Virus record (IMG/VR): IMGVR_UViG_3300021400_000023
DNA length: 54,137 nucleotides
Source: a virus
Strand: one strand, 5' to 3'
A program made the position numbers and the translations under genes. The notes beneath the pieces were generated by a model. That model searched no databases. It had not been told where the DNA came from and worked only from the letters and a program-made list of their open reading frames with translations. Positions 4,657 to 20,496 of the stretch are shown in pieces; position 1 is the stretch's first letter, and each line of letters begins with the position of its first letter.

Positions 4657-5602
4657 TGTAAATCACCGTCCCGTCAATCATCGTCGTTTCCAGCGCCTTG
4701 CGGCTATCCTCCGCCCACTTTTCCACCGTTTCCAGCAATACGCTGTATTCCTGCTTCTGGTCGTAGGGCATGGATGCAAATACCATCCTCATGTGCGGCA
4801 GGCGGGCAACCGTCCCGATAAACGCCCGCACGGCGGACGCGAAAGCATCCGGCGTCAGTTGATCCGCAGGCACGCGCTCTGCGTCGCCCTTGGCAATGGC
4901 GCTCTGAACGTTCAAAAGCTCCTGCTGGGCGCGGTTGATGTCCTCCTGCTGTTCGGCCAGAAGGTCGTCCCGTTCCCGAATTTCCCGCTGCAAATCGGCG
5001 TTTTCCTTGGAAAGCCGACGCTGTTCCGCCAGGGCCTCCGTGCCCACGGCGGCCAGCCGCTCAACCTCCGTCCGTTGCTGGGCGATGGTTTCCCGGCTCT
5101 TTGCCAGCTCGTCCGTCAGTTCCGGGGGGATTTCCGGCGGCCTGCTCTCTGCTTCCTCGGCGCGGCGCTCGGCATCCATGCGGGCCTTACGCTCCCGGTC
5201 AATCTCCGCCTGCGCTTCCTCCCGCGCCTTTTTCACGGCCTCCTGCACTTCCCGCGTCGTCATGGCTGAAACGTCGTGCTCCTCCATGAACTTTTCTTCC
5301 GTCCCGGCGGGAAGGGGCAGGAGTTTGAAAGTCTTGGCCTGTCCCAGCCCTTCAAACTGCGGTTTCCCGCCGAAGCGCTTATAGGCCGCCATCATGTCCT
5401 GCGCGGTGCGCTCGCTCACGTCGGCGTTTTCCTCCACCCATTTACCAAACTGGCCGTGCGGTATGATCTCCTTCGCCTCGGTGAACACGCGGGCGAGCTG
5501 CCACATATTCATGTTGATGTTCATGCGCAGCGTGCGCGCCTGCATCGCAAGGCCGTCAAGCACGCTGATTTCCTGGGTTTCGGTGTTGGCTAATTCCGTC
5601 AT
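4649..5602 (-). CDS. DUF3102-like protein with coiled-coil region
   Basis: The start is reassigned to the ATG at 5602, which has GGAGGAAAC upstream. HGQFGKWVEENADVSERTAQDMM resembles the remembered DUF3102 motif. Confidence 0.5.
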   Translation of the reverse strand: MTELANTETQEISVLDGLAMQARTLRMNINMNMWQLARVFTEAKEIIPHGQFGKWVEENADVSERTAQDMMAAYKRFGGKPQFEGLGQAKTFKLLPLPAGTEEKFMEEHDVSAMTTREVQEAVKKAREEAQAEIDRERKARMDAERRAEEAESRPPEIPPELTDELAKSRETIAQQRTEVERLAAVGTEALAEQRRLSKENADLQREIRERDDLLAEQQEDINRAQQELLNVQSAIAKGDAERVPADQLTPDAFASAVRAFIGTVARLPHMRMVFASMPYDQKQEYSVLLETVEKWAEDSRKALETTMIDGTVIYSE

Positions 5603-5610
5603 GTTTCCTC

Positions 5611-5982
5611 CTAATCTGCGTTTGCACGCAATTCCTGGTAGTTGTCCGGCGGAGCGGGTCGCGGTGCCCACTTCCGCACGTCGCTGGGCTTTTCTACCTG
5701 ATGCCAGCCACGCACGCGCAGATCGCCGTGACTGTCAATGACGAGGATGCAGGATTGAGGGTCTGCGTCCTCCTTGGTCGGCAGCCTGTCGTGCGGGTCG
5801 ATCCACTCCGTCGGCGGCTCCTGCCAGTACACATTGAAGCGGTTTTCGCGGGCTTTGAGGGTGCTGTACACCATGGCCCCTTGAAAGACGTGCCACACGA
5901 TGATGTAGCGCGCGTCCTCCTTGTTCTCTGCAATCGGACAGGTGGATATGTCCTTCCATCCGTTATTGCCCATCCTGCCCAC
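5611..5982 (-). CDS. Hypothetical protein with DUF551-like WIxxxDRLP motif
   Basis: 123-aa ORF containing EWIDPHDRLPTKED. Confidence 0.45.
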   Translation of the reverse strand: MGRMGNNGWKDISTCPIAENKEDARYIIVWHVFQGAMVYSTLKARENRFNVYWQEPPTEWIDPHDRLPTKEDADPQSCILVIDSHGDLRVRGWHQVEKPSDVRKWAPRPAPPDNYQELRANAD

Positions 5983-6238
5983 CCTTTGCCGGGGTTTCCA
6001 GGATGATCCCGCGCTTTTTCAGCTTCTCCACCCATACAGCCTTTGTCATGTCCGTGCAATGGCTCATGGCGTCCCACCAGCTCGGAAAGCGCTTGTTCGC
6101 CTTGAAGAACTGGTTTTGATAGTACAGGCTGTCCCTGTCGTGGGGGTCGCGCTCGTCGTGCTTCGTTGCGCAGACGGGGCACGTTCCGGGCACCGGCGCT
6201 GTGATCCTGATTTCATCCATGCCGTCAGATGGACGCAT
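5963..6238 (-). CDS. Hypothetical protein
   Basis: An internal ATG at 6238 is preceded by AAGGAGGTTGCC. The longer track ORF lacks an RBS. Confidence 0.5.
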   Translation of the reverse strand: MRPSDGMDEIRITAPVPGTCPVCATKHDERDPHDRDSLYYQNQFFKANKRFPSWWDAMSHCTDMTKAVWVEKLKKRGIILETPAKGGQDGQ

Positions 6239-6576
6239 GGCAACCTCCTTTCCTGTGGTGTTGGCAAATGCCCGTCTTTCCGGGCTGTCATGGCTGCCGG
6301 ACGGCGGCTCACAGGCCGCCATTATCCGGCAAAATGGGCCGGTCTTTCCCGGCTGCCAGACAGAGAAAACGGCCTCTTGGTTGGCTGTCACAACCGCAAT
6401 TACAACGTGCCGCTTGAGGGGGATCATTCAGGACTTCTTACCCCATCCGACTGTCCCGTGACGGGCAATGATATTGCACCAGCACGTTAGGGAATCGAAC
6501 CCGCGCGTTTGCAGAATCGAACTGCGCTTCACATTGCCATAGTGCCCAGCTATGCCTCCCGGTGTCCACGGAGAAT

Positions 6577-6705
6577 TGGCGGGAATGGCCGGAATTGAAC
6601 CGGCGCCCTGCGGAATGGTTACGGGTTTTCCTCTAACAGCAATCCGCCCCGTCGGACGGGCTGCCACTTTCTTTACCACCGCTCTACCATTTGAGCTACA
6701 TTCCC
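6577..6705 (-). tRNA. tRNA-like gene with canonical acceptor, D and T arms and encoded CCA, but 129 nt long (about 53 extra nt in the anticodon region)
   Basis: Minus-strand read: GGGAATG-TA-GCTC-AAATGGTA-GAGC ...(76 nt)... GCCGG-TTCAATT-CCGGC-CATTCCC-G-CCA. Confidence 0.5.
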
Positions 6706-6786
6706 ATGTGTGCCCGTCTTTCCGGGCCGCCAGCGGTCTTTCCCGCCGCCATTATCATTGTGGAGGTCTTGCCCTGGATGTCGTCT

Positions 6787-6924
6787 TGGAGCTGCGGGGC
6801 GGAATCGAACCGCCCAGGCGTGCGTTCGGCGTGATTTTCGGTATAGTTAAGGAGGTCAATCCCAACAAAGAAGATTATCTGCAATGGTTCTTATCATCAC
6901 GCCCGCCTGCAAACCTGCCGCAGC
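6787..6924 (-). ncRNA. tRNA-like element (7-bp acceptor pairing, T arm, CCA) lacking canonical D and anticodon arms; 138 nt
   Basis: 5' GCTGCGG pairs with 3' CCGCAGC-T-CCA. The T arm is GGCGG-TTCGATT-CCGCC. Internal long-range pairings CAGGCG/CGCCTG and GGCGTGAT/ATCACGCC are visible. Confidence 0.4.
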
Positions 6925-6927
6925 GCG

Positions 6928-6990
6928 TCAGCTCGTCTTAATGATCCATGCGATAAACAGCACGATCAAAACCCACCAATACCACGCCAT
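6928..6990 (-). CDS. Possible 20-aa hydrophobic peptide (MAWYWWVLIVLFIAWIIKTS)
   Basis: GGAGG lies 7 nt upstream of the ATG at 6990. The ORF is very short and is unsupported otherwise. Confidence 0.25.
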   Translation of the reverse strand: MAWYWWVLIVLFIAWIIKTS

Positions 6991-7004
6991 AGCTCGCGCC
7001 TCCA

Positions 7005-7295
7005 TCAATCGTACACTTCCCGAAGGTTCTTCTCGCACCAGTTGAGTGCCAGGTTGTACCGAAGCGTCGCGCAGTACACCAATTCGCTGTTGGCGTCGAT
7101 CCGCACAACCTCGGCGATGCGGTGTATGTCCCCGGAAAAGCCGACAAAGATTTTATCGTCCCAGCGCGTCGTCCCGTTCCGGCGCTTCGCTGCCGTCCAG
7201 ACGCTCGCAATCGTGCCCAACTTTCCTTCCTTCACGAAAGTGGCCAATTCCCGCAGTTGATCCGGGTTTTCGATGTGAAAGCGCTTCGCAGCCAT
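7005..7295 (-). CDS. Hypothetical protein
   Basis: 96-aa ORF tightly packed after the DUF1064-like gene. Confidence 0.55.
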   Translation of the reverse strand: MAAKRFHIENPDQLRELATFVKEGKLGTIASVWTAAKRRNGTTRWDDKIFVGFSGDIHRIAEVVRIDANSELVYCATLRYNLALNWCEKNLREVYD

Positions 7296-7296
7296 G

Positions 7297-7803
7297 CTAT
7301 ACCTCCTGTATCTCGATCCCCCAGCAGGCTTTCATCTGCTTTTTCTTGTTGATGTACACCCGGTTTTGCTTCGTCGCGGGGCTTTTTGCGTCGTACACCC
7401 CTTCAATGGAGAAATCCGGCCTGATGGTCACAAAGTCCGCGACGTACACGATCCCGCCGGGAAGGTCAAATTTCACCTGGCGGCAGACGGTTTTCAGCTC
7501 TCCGGCCCGCACGCGGAGCATCAATTCCTGGTAAATGTTCGCCTCATGCTGGCTGTCAAACTTGATCCCGTCGATCTCTACCCGCTTATTGCCGTACTTC
7601 TGGCGTTTTGGCGCGTTCTTCCGTGCCATTGCGGCGGCGATGTCGCCTACGTCCGCGCTCGCCATATCGGCCACCGATACCCCGGACGCCCGCGCGGGCT
7701 GGCAGCACGTCGGCGCGGGCTGTGCCCGCCCGGAATAGTCCGGCTTCTGGACGATGCGCTGCTTGTGTCGCCGCTGAAACTCGGCGTATTCCTCCTCGGT
7801 CAT
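7297..7803 (-). CDS. DUF1064-like putative nuclease/resolvase
   Basis: KYGNKRVEIDGIKFDSQHEANIYQEL...VADFV resembles the remembered DUF1064 pattern. The start is set at the ATG at 7803, which forms an ATGA overlap with the upstream stop. Confidence 0.6.
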   Translation of the reverse strand: MTEEEYAEFQRRHKQRIVQKPDYSGRAQPAPTCCQPARASGVSVADMASADVGDIAAAMARKNAPKRQKYGNKRVEIDGIKFDSQHEANIYQELMLRVRAGELKTVCRQVKFDLPGGIVYVADFVTIRPDFSIEGVYDAKSPATKQNRVYINKKKQMKACWGIEIQEV

Positions 7804-8309
7804 GCGGAGCGCCATTTCTTCCACCAGCCTTTCAGCCTCTCCCATGCGGATTGATAGGGAGCCGGTATAACCGCTATCTCACCCGGCTTGCACAGGGAAA
7901 CGTCGGGAACGTCCACGACCTTGACGCTCGTCCTTTGCCAGCTCTTGATGGATAGGCTGCCCGTTTGGTATTCCCTGCGTACAATCGTCGTCGCGTTGTC
8001 GGAGTTGGAAACAAGCACGGATTTATCGTCCCAATACTCGGTGGCGTAGATTTTCCGGCTGTTATTTCCGAAATATGCCTTGTTCTCCTCCAGGTTGTCG
8101 TTCACGGCATCGAATTTCAGCCCATGATTGAGGCACCACATCACCGCCGCCTTTAGCTGTTCACCCTCCCGGCACGACCAGAGGATCAGTTTCGCGCCCT
8201 CGGCCTGCTGCCGGATAAGCTCATTGATAACCTGTTGGCGCGGCGCGCCGATGTCCGGCCATTTCCCGCCGCACAGGCAGCCGTCAAAATCCACGGCGAT
8301 GATCTTCAT
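7800..8309 (-). CDS. HAD-superfamily hydrolase-like protein
   Basis: N-terminal MKIIAVDFDGCL (HAD motif I) is followed by ...LILWSCREG. Confidence 0.55.
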   Translation of the reverse strand: MKIIAVDFDGCLCGGKWPDIGAPRQQVINELIRQQAEGAKLILWSCREGEQLKAAVMWCLNHGLKFDAVNDNLEENKAYFGNNSRKIYATEYWDDKSVLVSNSDNATTIVRREYQTGSLSIKSWQRTSVKVVDVPDVSLCKPGEIAVIPAPYQSAWERLKGWWKKWRSA

Positions 8310-8524
8310 ACCTCAACCCCCGCTTCCTTGCATCCGTCCATGTAGGCTTTCATCCGCATGGCAAACAGATTGCCGATGTCCTCAATAACCTTCTGCTCGG
8401 CCTCCGCCGCGCCGTCGCTCGCTTTGATGTACAGCGGCACCGCAGGCAGATAATCCCCGGTAGCAGGATCGCGCAGGGCGGTATATCCAATCTGGATGTA
8501 TTCATCCTTCTTTTCCGCCGCCAT
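8306..8524 (-). CDS. Hypothetical protein
   Basis: The ATG at 8524 is preceded by AAGGAGG. The longer track ORF would overlap the cro-like gene. Confidence 0.5.
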   Translation of the reverse strand: MAAEKKDEYIQIGYTALRDPATGDYLPAVPLYIKASDGAAEAEQKVIEDIGNLFAMRMKAYMDGCKEAGVEV

Positions 8525-8526
8525 GA

Positions 8527-8739
8527 TTACACAGCCTCCTTGGCCGGTTTGTAGTGGTACAGCTCTTCCGGGGTTTTCTTCAACACCTGGCACAGTCCGA
8601 AAAACTCATCCACGTCAACCTTGCGCTTACCGGCGAGCATGGCGCTGAAAGTAGGCTCGCTCATGCCGATACGGTCAGCGATGTACTTCTGCTTCAAGCC
8701 GCTGTCTGCGACTGCCGCGCTGATGCGTTCATTAACCAC
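8527..8739 (-). CDS. XRE-family HTH regulator (Cro-like)
   Basis: 70-aa HTH protein (LKQKYIADRIGMSEPTFSAMLAGKR) that is divergent from the CI-like gene. Confidence 0.8.
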   Translation of the reverse strand: MVNERISAAVADSGLKQKYIADRIGMSEPTFSAMLAGKRKVDVDEFFGLCQVLKKTPEELYHYKPAKEAV

Positions 8740-8760
8740 GCTGTTATCCTCCTCTCTTTT

Positions 8761-8777
8761 CTTCGGAATCTCCGAAG
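8761..8777. promoter_or_regulatory. Operator-like palindrome CTTCGGAATCTCCGAAG
   Basis: Perfect 7-bp arms lie just downstream of the leftward -10. A related site TTCAGAATTTCCGAAG is at 8824-8839. Confidence 0.55.
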
Positions 8778-8786
8778 TGTAGATAC

Positions 8787-8815
8787 ATTATAATTCGGCG
8801 TCGCCGTATTGTCAA
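8787..8815 (-). promoter_or_regulatory. Leftward early promoter (TTGACA-17-TATAAT)
   Basis: The reverse complement reads ttgaca (8815-8810), a 17-nt spacer, then tataat (8792-8787). Confidence 0.65.
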
Positions 8816-8823
8816 CAGAAAAA

Positions 8824-8839
8824 TTCAGAATTTCCGAAG
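8824..8839. promoter_or_regulatory. Second operator-like site TTCAGAATTTCCGAAG
   Basis: It is related to the 8761-8777 palindrome and lies between the two divergent -35 boxes. Confidence 0.45.
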
Positions 8840-8846
8840 TTTTTTA

Positions 8847-8875
8847 TTGCAAAGGGCCTCCCGATACGATATAAT
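8847..8875 (+). promoter_or_regulatory. Rightward repressor promoter (TTGCAA-17-TATAAT)
   Basis: ttgcaa at 8847-8852, a 17-nt spacer, then tataat at 8870-8875, upstream of the GTG at 8905. Confidence 0.6.
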
Positions 8876-8904
8876 CAAAGAGAACAACGCAAGGAGGCGA
8901 TTTT

Positions 8905-9276
8905 GTGGGAGAAATAAGAAAGACCGTAGGAGAGAATATTAAGAAGGTCTGCCAACTAAAGGGAATACGACAGGTTGATATATCGGAGCACATGAAGGTG
9001 TCGCAGGGCACCGTTTCTAACTGGTTCAAGGGTACGAACTCAATAGATATTGAAAACCTCGCCGAATTGTGCTCTTTCCTCGGCGTTTCATTGGATCAGA
9101 TTTTCGGCGTGGCCCCGCTGACGCCAGAAGTTACATTGTCACAGGAAGAAACCGACCTTTTGAGCATGTTCCGTGCTTTGAACAGCCAGGGGAAGGATAT
9201 GCTCATGAGCACAGCCCGCGCTTTTGCTGGCAATCCTGATATGCAAAAAGAAAGTACGAAGTCAAAGATGGCGTGA
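8905..9276 (+). CDS. XRE-family HTH repressor (CI-like, no peptidase domain)
   Basis: GTG start follows AAGGAGG. The HTH is LKGIRQVDISEHMKVSQGTVSNWFKG. At 123 aa there is no room for an S24 domain. Confidence 0.8.
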   Translation: MGEIRKTVGENIKKVCQLKGIRQVDISEHMKVSQGTVSNWFKGTNSIDIENLAELCSFLGVSLDQIFGVAPLTPEVTLSQEETDLLSMFRALNSQGKDMLMSTARAFAGNPDMQKESTKSKMA

Positions 9277-13327: not shown

Positions 13328-13424
13328 AGTCGAAACGCGGCGGGGCCGCGTCCGCCGGGGATCGCCTCCCGGCGCTGATGATGGCAGGCGAACACAACAC
13401 CGAATTTTTAAGGAGGCCAACACC

Positions 13425-20274: not shown

Positions 20275-20496
20275 TCACTTCCTGCCTTGCTTCTGCCTGT
20301 ACCGTTTGATCGCCATAGCGCGCTTCATTCCGTGTGTGGCGGCCTCTTTCAGCGCCCTTTCCTCCGCCCGCTCCTTCCTCCGCTTCTCGCACCAGGCGGC
20401 AAAGCGGGCGTACCGCTCGCAATCTGCGTGACACGTTGCCGATCTTTCCGGGCAATCCTTTACGCATGGATTGTCCACCACGTCGCCCCTGCTCAT
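20275..20496 (-). CDS. Small Cys-rich protein
   Basis: The ATG at 20496 forms an ATGA overlap with the recombinase stop. The sequence contains CVKDCPERSATCHADC. Confidence 0.5.
   Translation of the reverse strand: MSRGDVVDNPCVKDCPERSATCHADCERYARFAAWCEKRRKERAEERALKEAATHGMKRAMAIKRYRQKQGRK

Follow-up and report, generated by a model that had tools for sequence, protein, structure and literature searches.

Conserved tRNA-shaped and structured RNA modules in the early operon of a rumen Clostridia prophage: a putative tRNA-punctuated array of non-decoding RNAs

The tRNA fold recruits RNase P and the enzymes of 3′ maturation, as in mitochondrial tRNA punctuation, the mascRNA of MALAT1, engineered tRNA scaffolds and tRNA-guide arrays. 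Such tRNA-like handles define the ends of neighbouring RNAs and may hold a cargo RNA in place of the anticodon arm. Here we describe an array of tRNA-shaped and other structured RNAs in the viral sequence IMGVR_UViG_3300021400_000023 of the IMG/VR database (54,137 nucleotides [nt]; this whole stretch of DNA is referred to below as the window). Compared with the handles listed above, the array is a putative natural case in a bacterial virus, equipped with a dedicated leader hairpin, and its cleavage is predicted from the anatomy of its units.

The nearest published parallel is provided by two small stable RNAs of the tRNA region of phage T4, RNAC and RNAD (species 1 and 2), whose role is unknown (PMC3014915). 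They are likewise located among phage tRNA genes and co-transcribed (PMC3014915), and are set beside the array by description only. The array differs from them in its position in the early operon of a temperate siphovirus without any canonical tRNA, in having a leader hairpin for each unit and in the swapping of its modules among related phages. Two further phage systems are relevant: theta ribozymes, i.e. minimal ribozymes resembling that of hepatitis delta virus (HDV), which are structured RNAs lying no more than 5 nt from a phage tRNA and proposed to process its 3′ trailer (PMC10879173), and the PeSLs, promoter/stem-loop cassettes of T4-type phages, which are promoter-terminator units of one phage group (PMC2839356, PMC4122927).

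Anatomy and conservation of the array

The window is a temperate siphovirus-type prophage whose host is a rumen Clostridia bacterium. A gene-free region of approximately 700 bases (6240-6935, minus strand) is bordered by genes of 96 codons (7005-7295) and 91 codons (5963-6238), and contains, in the direction of transcription, three elements designated A, B and C. We consider it fairly probable that this region is a tRNA-punctuated early transcript, cut by the tRNA-processing enzymes of the host into stable RNAs that do not decode. A preliminary inspection of the letters and open reading frames (ORFs; hereafter the sequence-only reading) had described a cluster of oversized tRNA-like genes at this locus, interpreted as intron- or insertion-containing tRNAs, tRNA-derived regulatory RNAs or decayed tRNAs. 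All the features that it listed were found on the minus strand, displaced by one base at most. A run of ARAGORN, one of the checks it proposed, gave no call of a canonical tRNA or transfer-messenger RNA (tmRNA) in the whole window.

For comparison we used 14 syntenic loci (from IMG/VR, JGI metagenomes and GTDB genomes) identified via the flanking genes, plus the nearest genome, G001, which has 58% of the window's words in common with it. The relatives from rumen metagenomes retain all of A, B and C, with compensatory base changes, and the array of contig L158 is that of the window with a few substitutions. Covariation in homologues, also proposed by the sequence-only reading as a check, yielded 8 compensatory pairs in A, 16 in C and 3 in the tRNA frame of B.

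Element A (6787-6924, minus strand; 138 nt) is a minihelix of acceptor and T arm that bears a long rod and whose CCA is encoded. Its parts are a 7-bp acceptor, a single-stranded linker of 8 nt with two G residues, the rod, an inner region of 66 nt, a T arm, a U discriminator and CCA; it has neither a D arm nor an anticodon arm. The rod is built of a 6-bp and an 8-bp helix, parted by a 7-nt bulge on the 3′ side, and the T arm abuts it directly. The acceptor, T arm and CCA correspond to those described in the sequence-only reading, and the structure tested was the one which that reading suggested: both long-range helices that it had named are preserved in relatives by compensatory changes. In the alignment of nine distinct sequences from three lineages (80% identity), 98.3% of the cells are paired and the compensatory pairs are distributed over all four helices. 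The covariation score was reached by none of 500 shuffles, and pairing fell to 38-50% when the partners were slid by 1-3 columns.

The pyrimidine stretch noticed earlier inside A was located at 6849-6856, in an apical hairpin (6846-6866). It is identical to the last conserved bases of 16S rRNA, whose 3′ end constitutes the anti-Shine-Dalgarno tail; together with its neighbours it copies 8-9 bases of that tail. Seven of its bases are invariant in all nine A sequences (three lineages), although the flanks vary, and the stretch is placed at the tip of the hairpin in every lineage, with different letters in the stem, as read from the alignment and the fold. The hairpin tip could thus be a mimic of the 16S rRNA 3′ tail that pairs with ribosome-binding sites; it is this invariant copy alone that leads us to suggest such an action of A.

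Element A resembles the tRNA-like domain of tmRNA in its acceptor, the two-G single-stranded linker standing for the D arm, the long helix leaving the junction, the T arm and CCA. It differs in lacking the G3-U70 pair (pair 3-70 is U-A or G-C), the tag reading frame and the pseudoknots, and the Rfam tmRNA match covers only a 17-nt T arm (12.6 bits, threshold 47). ARAGORN called no tmRNA either. Lacking the G3-U70 pair and the tag frame, A is not a small tmRNA.

Element B (6577-6705, minus strand; 129 nt) has a complete tRNA frame, in which the anticodon arm is enlarged and an anticodon loop is missing. The frame contains a 7-bp acceptor, a 4-bp D stem with an 8-nt loop including two G residues, a 5-bp T stem with a 7-nt T loop, a G discriminator and an encoded CCA; U8, A14, both D-loop G residues and the T loop are standard. 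This bears out the tRNA frame recognized in the sequence-only reading (acceptor, U8, D arm, T arm, discriminator and CCA), together with the 76 nt that it counted from D arm to T arm. The Rfam scan, which it had also proposed, matched B to the tRNA model (RF00005) end to end at 6580-6705 (50.1 bits, gathering threshold 29, E = 8e-8), with an insert of 62 nt (6614-6675) replacing the nine central positions of the anticodon arm. The core of the insert is a rod of 12-13 bp (6634-6666) with a 4-nt closing loop (6650-6653), and in L158 a single substitution converts a G-U pair of this rod into G-C. Like a tRNA, B thus has every element of the upper half, with a score above the family threshold, and A has the acceptor, T arm, discriminator and CCA; unlike tRNAs, neither contains a 7-nt anticodon loop and both are rejected by ARAGORN. 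In B, no loop with U33 and a purine at position 37 was found, the arm folding into a closed rod.

In five B sequences the acceptor and T stems are 100% paired. The form found in L038 matches the Rfam tRNA model with 45.9 bits and has an insert of 59 nt; the only similarity to the insert of the window consists of two short blocks, paired with one another in either version. The forms of L162 and L165 have a short arm ending in a sealed 12-nt loop. The top half is therefore kept while the lower half is hypervariable at one and the same slot, and B appears to be mainly a handle for processing and stability, with a lower half free to vary. As the inserts are not unusually stable, we make no claim of a conserved insert structure. 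Exact-pattern scans of IMG/VR for B (5′ part and 3′ part) and for A (3′ part) gave no match, and a gapped-pattern scan for A returned the four contigs already known and no others. Among 401 genomes of the nearest family, a search at the DNA level retrieved G001 and otherwise nothing but matches of about 30 nt to host tRNA genes.

Element C (6360-6576, minus strand; 217 nt) is a structured RNA beginning one base past the CCA of B. Eight distinct sequences, obtained by a pattern scan and from the syntenic loci, were analysed with RNAalifold, which gave 56 pairs in three domains, 97% of the cells being paired. Thirteen helices are kept by compensatory changes; none of 500 shuffles reached the covariation values, and controls with slid partners paired at 34-47%. 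A 7-bp stem (6532-6538 with 6464-6470) with three covarying positions encloses two T-loop hairpins (6511-6525 and 6491-6501), and two more domains follow. The sequence-only reading was correct in noting two T-arm-like motifs at 6476-6570, but these are hairpins of the 217-nt RNA rather than loose motifs; that they belong to a separate structured RNA had escaped it.

The first base of C is that following the CCA of the preceding unit in 11 of the 11 extracted copies (nine distinct). Contigs assembled from RNA libraries of three studies cover 6355-6565, and two of them end at base 6355, at the 5′ edge of the second leader hairpin (see below), without a loose end; this shared stop is a weak hint of an RNA end, which contigs cannot prove. 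A covariance model of the C core found no match in 151 genomes of the nearest family (none of them known to hold C) and a single weak match (19.4 bits) in 100 viral loci bearing the leader hairpin, so C seems to be confined to this phage group.

Like the theta ribozymes (PMC10879173), C adjoins a tRNA-like unit, starting at the base after its CCA. Unlike them it is 217 nt long and has no Rfam ribozyme match. An HDV-like or theta ribozyme at the start of C was rejected because its first 60 nt cannot make the nested fold of HDV type, a judgement made by eye, with no formal descriptor search. Self-cleaving ribozymes (hammerhead, HDV-like, twister, pistol and hatchet) had no Rfam match within 6000-7300 at E values up to 10, where the remaining matches were 13-17-nt T-arm fragments of tmRNA models and noise.

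The other loci contain different combinations of modules between the same two genes: A, an 82-nt unit, the forms of B, an odd tRNA-Trp(CCA), tRNA-shaped units of 72-134 nt, one or two small protein genes, and C. The slot before C may be occupied by B, by two other forms of B, by the odd tRNA-Trp, by two other tRNA-shaped units or by a true class II tRNA-Ser(GCU). That any tRNA-like unit may precede C, and that C always starts at its 3′ end, fits the prediction for processing handles. All units seen in the relatives have an intact acceptor, T loop, discriminator and CCA, the odd tRNA-Trp having a non-standard T loop. Comparison of the window, G001 and L165 revealed that the junctions of the alternative modules coincide with CCA ends and hairpins.

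Several of these modules have peculiarities of their own. In the 82-nt unit (L035:3512-3593; also in G001 [L001:1321-1402, minus strand], L162 and L165) two hairpins replace the D and anticodon arms; their loops resemble the loop of the leader hairpin, so the unit may bind the same partner. The odd tRNA-Trp(CCA) (L035:3969-4041; also in L166) fills in L035 the slot held by B in the window; its anticodon arm is normal, but its T loop is non-standard and its D loop, of 5 nt, lacks the two G residues. Oversized units with a different family of inserts are present at L160:2820-2953 (134 nt), where the unit replaces A directly after the upstream gene, and at L174:1405-1540 (about 136 nt). Related arrays include a gene of about 100 codons with a run of G residues (L035:3711-3719), the length of which determines its frame: nine G in L035, L038 and L160, ten in L162 and L165, the counts for L160 and L038 being approximate. 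Slippage, phase variation or an assembly error could account for this difference.

The leader hairpin

The array contains three copies of a hairpin of 23 nt, all on the minus strand. Hairpin 1 (6711-6733), with a 5-bp stem, a six-purine loop and a trailing A, ends 6 nt before B; hairpin 2 (6337-6359) has the full consensus form; and hairpin 3 (6269-6291) precedes the ribosome-binding site of the next gene by 19 nt. The repeated hairpins of the sequence-only reading were thus recovered (cores at 6270-6285 and 6712-6727), along with a third core at 6338-6353, as was its short repeated motif, a 12-nt repeat with copies at 6315-6326 and 6745-6756. The latter copy carries a −10-like hexamer and precedes a short 4-bp hairpin with the same six-purine loop (6733-6746); the former, also with a −10-like hexamer, is followed by a 6-bp hairpin (whole segment 6303-6326). 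The pattern of the hairpin core has four matches in the window (0.09 expected from shuffles) and that of the 12-nt repeat two (0.03 expected). A near-copy of the core at 20438-20453 is found within a coding sequence, has no conserved 5′ flank and is probably due to chance.

What the sequence-only reading did not see is that this hairpin is a widespread leader element of phages. An 18-nt pattern with one free stem pair retrieved it from at least 119 viral contigs of IMG/VR. The free pair is complementary in all 112 distinct copies, in 74 one way and in 38 the other. The conserved flanks are confined to four bases upstream and one A downstream, with no information farther out. Weaker variants within the arrays keep the first and last bases of the loop, while the stem is changed. 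The tRNAs called by ARAGORN within 400 nt of a hairpin are all on the same strand (44 of 44), 17 of them starting 0-8 nt downstream. A strict tRNA frame (7/7 acceptor and 5/5 T-stem pairs) begins 3-8 nt downstream of 25 of 113 hairpin copies; five of these frames are 103-133 nt long and are rejected by ARAGORN. Other copies precede ribosome-binding sites or terminator-like hairpins.

In cultured phages of Stenotrophomonas, Escherichia coli (mEp390), Klebsiella, Acinetobacter and Pseudomonas, the hairpin is located in gene-free early leaders of 0.5-0.8 kb. BLAST matches, not inspected one by one, were also recorded in Cronobacter, in Aeromonas phages and in cyanophages; the 141 BLAST records include some chance matches in coding sequence. 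Three hairpin-bearing leaders, of Stenotrophomonas phage BUCT708 (L167:3540-4330), mEp390 (L178:2040-2760) and Klebsiella phage P7641 (L180:320-1020), have several conserved blocks in common and up to six full or partial copies of the loop motif each; those of mEp390 and the Klebsiella phage share further blocks, and those of BUCT708 and mEp390 are placed downstream of a repressor gene.

This last arrangement recalls boxB of phage λ, which consists of a 5-bp G+C stem, a short all-purine loop and an A flank, and is located in an early-operon leader downstream of the repressor region. The likeness applies to BUCT708 and mEp390. Unlike boxB, the hairpin has a loop of six bases instead of five, is accompanied by no recognizable boxA or N gene, occurs in up to five copies per array and keeps a fixed distance from tRNA 5′ ends; the positions upstream of its 4-nt flank carry no information. 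No N-like family was recognized in the gene annotations, such proteins being too short and varied to be excluded in this way.

Several other identities of the hairpin were rejected. With its 5′ flank taken as the −35 element of a sigma-70 promoter, no −10 element is apparent (0.04-0.26 bits at positions 19-24 after the flank), and since the tRNA begins 3-8 nt after the hairpin, the start site would fall inside it. Judged by eye, the spacing does not fit a sigma-54 promoter, and a hammerhead core in the 5′ flank would have two core positions swapped. Full-text literature searches for the letters of the hairpin found no relevant paper, and a phrase search for stem-loops leading phage tRNAs found none; a preprint on the prophage small RNA Pas/STnc100 concerns another motif.

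Processing of the array and competing explanations

The units of the array look like RNA modules that have been kept deliberately, not like split or dead tRNA genes. Of the three proposals made by the sequence-only reading, RNAs derived from tRNA that do not decode fit best, its term "regulatory" going further than the observations. A and B retain what RNase P, the 3′-trimming enzymes and the CCA enzyme recognize, i.e. the acceptor, T arm, elbow, discriminator and CCA, and other RNA takes the place of the anticodon domain, which precludes decoding. Host enzymes of tRNA maturation would cut the long transcript at the tRNA-shaped modules ("tRNA punctuation"), releasing A (138 nt), B (129 nt) and C (~217 nt) as stable small RNAs, the 5′ end of C being set by the 3′ end of the preceding tRNA-like unit, and the newly formed ends of the flanking mRNAs would bear a hairpin. 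A, and probably also C, may carry functional cargo, to which the tRNA shapes would give defined and protected ends. Anatomy, conservation, covariation, module swapping and the absence of an anticodon are direct observations, and from there we infer transcription from the promoter at 8787-8815, the cleavage by RNase P and 3′ enzymes, the stability of the products and all functions.

A broader proposal, which we regard as tentative and, taken as a whole, rather unlikely, assigns a role to each component. The tRNA shape would give effector RNAs processing and stability made by the host. A would mimic the 16S rRNA 3′ tail in trans, covering ribosome-binding sites or soaking up a factor directed to that tail. 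C would dock via its two T-loop hairpins on tRNA elbows or on tRNA-binding machinery. The hairpin would be an undescribed RNA signal for a machine found across phyla (RNase P, RNA polymerase or the ribosome), common to phages from Clostridia to Proteobacteria and cyanobacteria.

A number of observations weigh against the processing of a punctuated transcript into functional RNAs. The covariation rests on 3-5 lineages and hence on few independent events. Single-sequence folds are only mildly better than shuffles for A (z = −2.3) and for the whole of B (z = −2.1), and no better for the region of C (z = +0.8); the energy of the B insert is ordinary (z = −0.4), and across the forms of B the inserts (z from −0.4 to −1.05) do not surpass shuffles. 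The lack of conservation of the insert outside the two short blocks would also allow B to be a tolerated variant that has no role in its own right. The anti-Shine-Dalgarno stretch of A is, in two lineages, partly engaged in base pairs of its own hairpin. The RNA data are contigs without read-level information or usable starts and ends, from libraries that can hold DNA, and B is not covered. RNase P might be impeded, not helped, by a hairpin whose end is 3-8 nt away from the cleavage site. Moreover, the strict conservation of the loop and 5′ flank of the hairpin is explained neither by the role of a plain stabilizer nor by tRNA punctuation.

It is quite unlikely, in our estimation, that the units are decaying tRNA pseudogenes and debris of recombination, tolerated in a non-essential spacer. 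Such an origin would agree with array content that differs among phages whose flanks are 96-99% identical, with the poor conservation and ordinary fold energy of the B insert, and with the resemblance, over about 30 nt, of parts of A and B to host tRNA-Thr and tRNA-Gly genes. However, decay, which was among the proposals of the sequence-only reading, is poorly supported: compensatory changes preserve the helices of A, C and the B frame, the fully paired acceptor and T stems of B and the conserved interiors of A and C point the same way, the acceptor, T loop, discriminator and CCA are undamaged in all the units seen, the loop motif of A is invariant, and the combination of leader hairpin and oversized tRNA recurs in unrelated phages.

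Phage tRNAs of T5 and other phages reportedly counter tRNA-cutting defences. The tRNA-shaped RNAs might serve as decoys or sponges, drawing off host proteins with tRNA-binding or tRNA-cutting activity (such as anticodon nucleases or tRNA-modifying enzymes), with the lower half shaped by an arms race. A conserved top half combined with a hypervariable anticodon domain at one slot, and the location in an early operon, are what such a role would produce. A decoy for anticodon nucleases should, nevertheless, keep the anticodon loop that is recognized, and these units have none; nor were defence or counter-defence genes recognized among the annotations of the genes beside the array. We judge this explanation improbable.

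The hairpin could instead be mainly an exchange point at the DNA level and the units mobile cassettes, so that the array would reflect cassette traffic and no RNA function. The module junctions lying in or at hairpins (window, G001 and L165) and the 22-nt identity common to otherwise unrelated phages speak for this. The PeSLs offer a precedent as exchange points and are similar in being short conserved regulatory units that flank variable modules exchanged there (PMC2839356, PMC4122927); the hairpin differs from them in lacking a conserved −10 box and in being distributed over phages of several bacterial phyla. On the other hand, the orientation of the hairpin with the tRNAs (44 to 0) and its fixed distance of 3-8 nt from their 5′ ends indicate a role in RNA. 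An all-against-all comparison of 2731 ORFs from 119 loci revealed no recombinase or other protein family common to the hairpin flanks (the best family was present at 19 of 119 loci), and a conserved RNA signal can, as a side effect, become a place of exchange. This explanation is, in our view, very unlikely.

Finally, B, and perhaps A, could be functional tRNA genes split by short introns or insertions whose removal yields decoding tRNAs; this possibility can be dismissed as hardly credible because no shared excision was found and no intron model matched. The tRNA frame of B is high-scoring, with the extra RNA exactly in the anticodon arm, and introns in the anticodon loop of some phage and bacterial tRNAs provide a precedent (bioRxiv 10.1101/2020.01.27.920355). 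Yet the insert is only 62 nt long, as against the core of about 200 nt or more needed by a group I intron, and Rfam intron and ribozyme families had no match within 6000-7300 even at E values of 10. Bacteria of the Clostridia type are not known to have the splicing endonuclease that bulge-helix-bulge (archaeal-type) tRNA introns require. Every segment of at least 30 nt was removed in turn, giving 1278 variants of B and 990 of the L038 form, which were submitted to ARAGORN; this program is permissive and called many of them, but no excision was shared by the two forms and no common anticodon resulted. The commonest anticodons, GAA and CGU, differ between B and the L038 form, in loops devoid of U33. 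Relatives show at the same slot a different, unrelated insert, an arm sealed by a 12-nt loop, or real tRNAs of another identity, the joined form was not seen in four RNA libraries (in which B had no cover), and A is entirely without D and anticodon arms. The intron proposal of the sequence-only reading is accordingly not supported.

Phage context and significance

Structural and integration genes of the window, on the plus strand, encode the large terminase, portal, tape measure and a serine integrase, while its minus-strand genes include those of a RusA-type resolvase and a helicase loader. A consensus promoter of the sigma-70 type (8787-8815, minus strand; 12 of 12 hexamer positions matched, 17-nt spacer) heads the leftward early operon and is the sole promoter-like site on this strand within 5800-9000. 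Between it and the array, no terminator-like site was found on the minus strand except for a weak call inside B, and the array itself contains no convincing terminator. As there is no other strong minus-strand promoter, the array is most likely part of the leftward early transcript.

The upstream 96-codon gene (7005-7295, minus strand), which served as the synteny anchor, has relatives with 74-97% identity, and directly downstream of them there is always a tRNA-shaped element. The array is terminated by the 91-codon gene (5963-6238, minus strand), whose product contains a Cys-x-x-Cys motif and belongs to no Pfam family. Between the upstream gene and A, a mini-ORF of 20 codons (6928-6990, minus strand) with its own ribosome-binding site encodes a tryptophan-rich, hydrophobic peptide. 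It is present in the lineages of the window, G001 and L165, and absent from that of L035, in which A begins a few bases past the stop codon of the upstream gene. A BLAST search of cultured phages with positions 5000-9000 gave no match. Elsewhere in the window, an accessory island on the plus strand contains its only hammerhead, a type II ribozyme (13328-13393; 50.8 bits, Rfam gathering threshold 37).

A literature search found no published description of such a phage RNA array. New here are the form of B with its 62-nt rod, the evidence for a hypervariable slot, the case against introns from trial excisions, a control-backed structure of C, and the counts of strand and spacing for the hairpin.

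The annotation of phages comprises almost nothing but protein genes and canonical tRNAs; as the array illustrates, a temperate phage can set aside 700 bases of its early operon for conserved RNAs that are rejected by tRNA finders and absent from Rfam. The leader hairpin, nearly identical letter by letter in phages of distant hosts and fixed a few bases before tRNA 5′ ends, is a candidate for a new signal in the maturation of tRNAs or mRNAs. Should A act in trans, its displayed copy of the anti-Shine-Dalgarno sequence would give the phage a simple means of interfering with the initiation of translation. If the tRNA frame is indeed a natural handle for processing and stability, the array would be for a bacterial virus what tRNA punctuation is for mitochondria and what tRNA scaffolds are for biotechnology.

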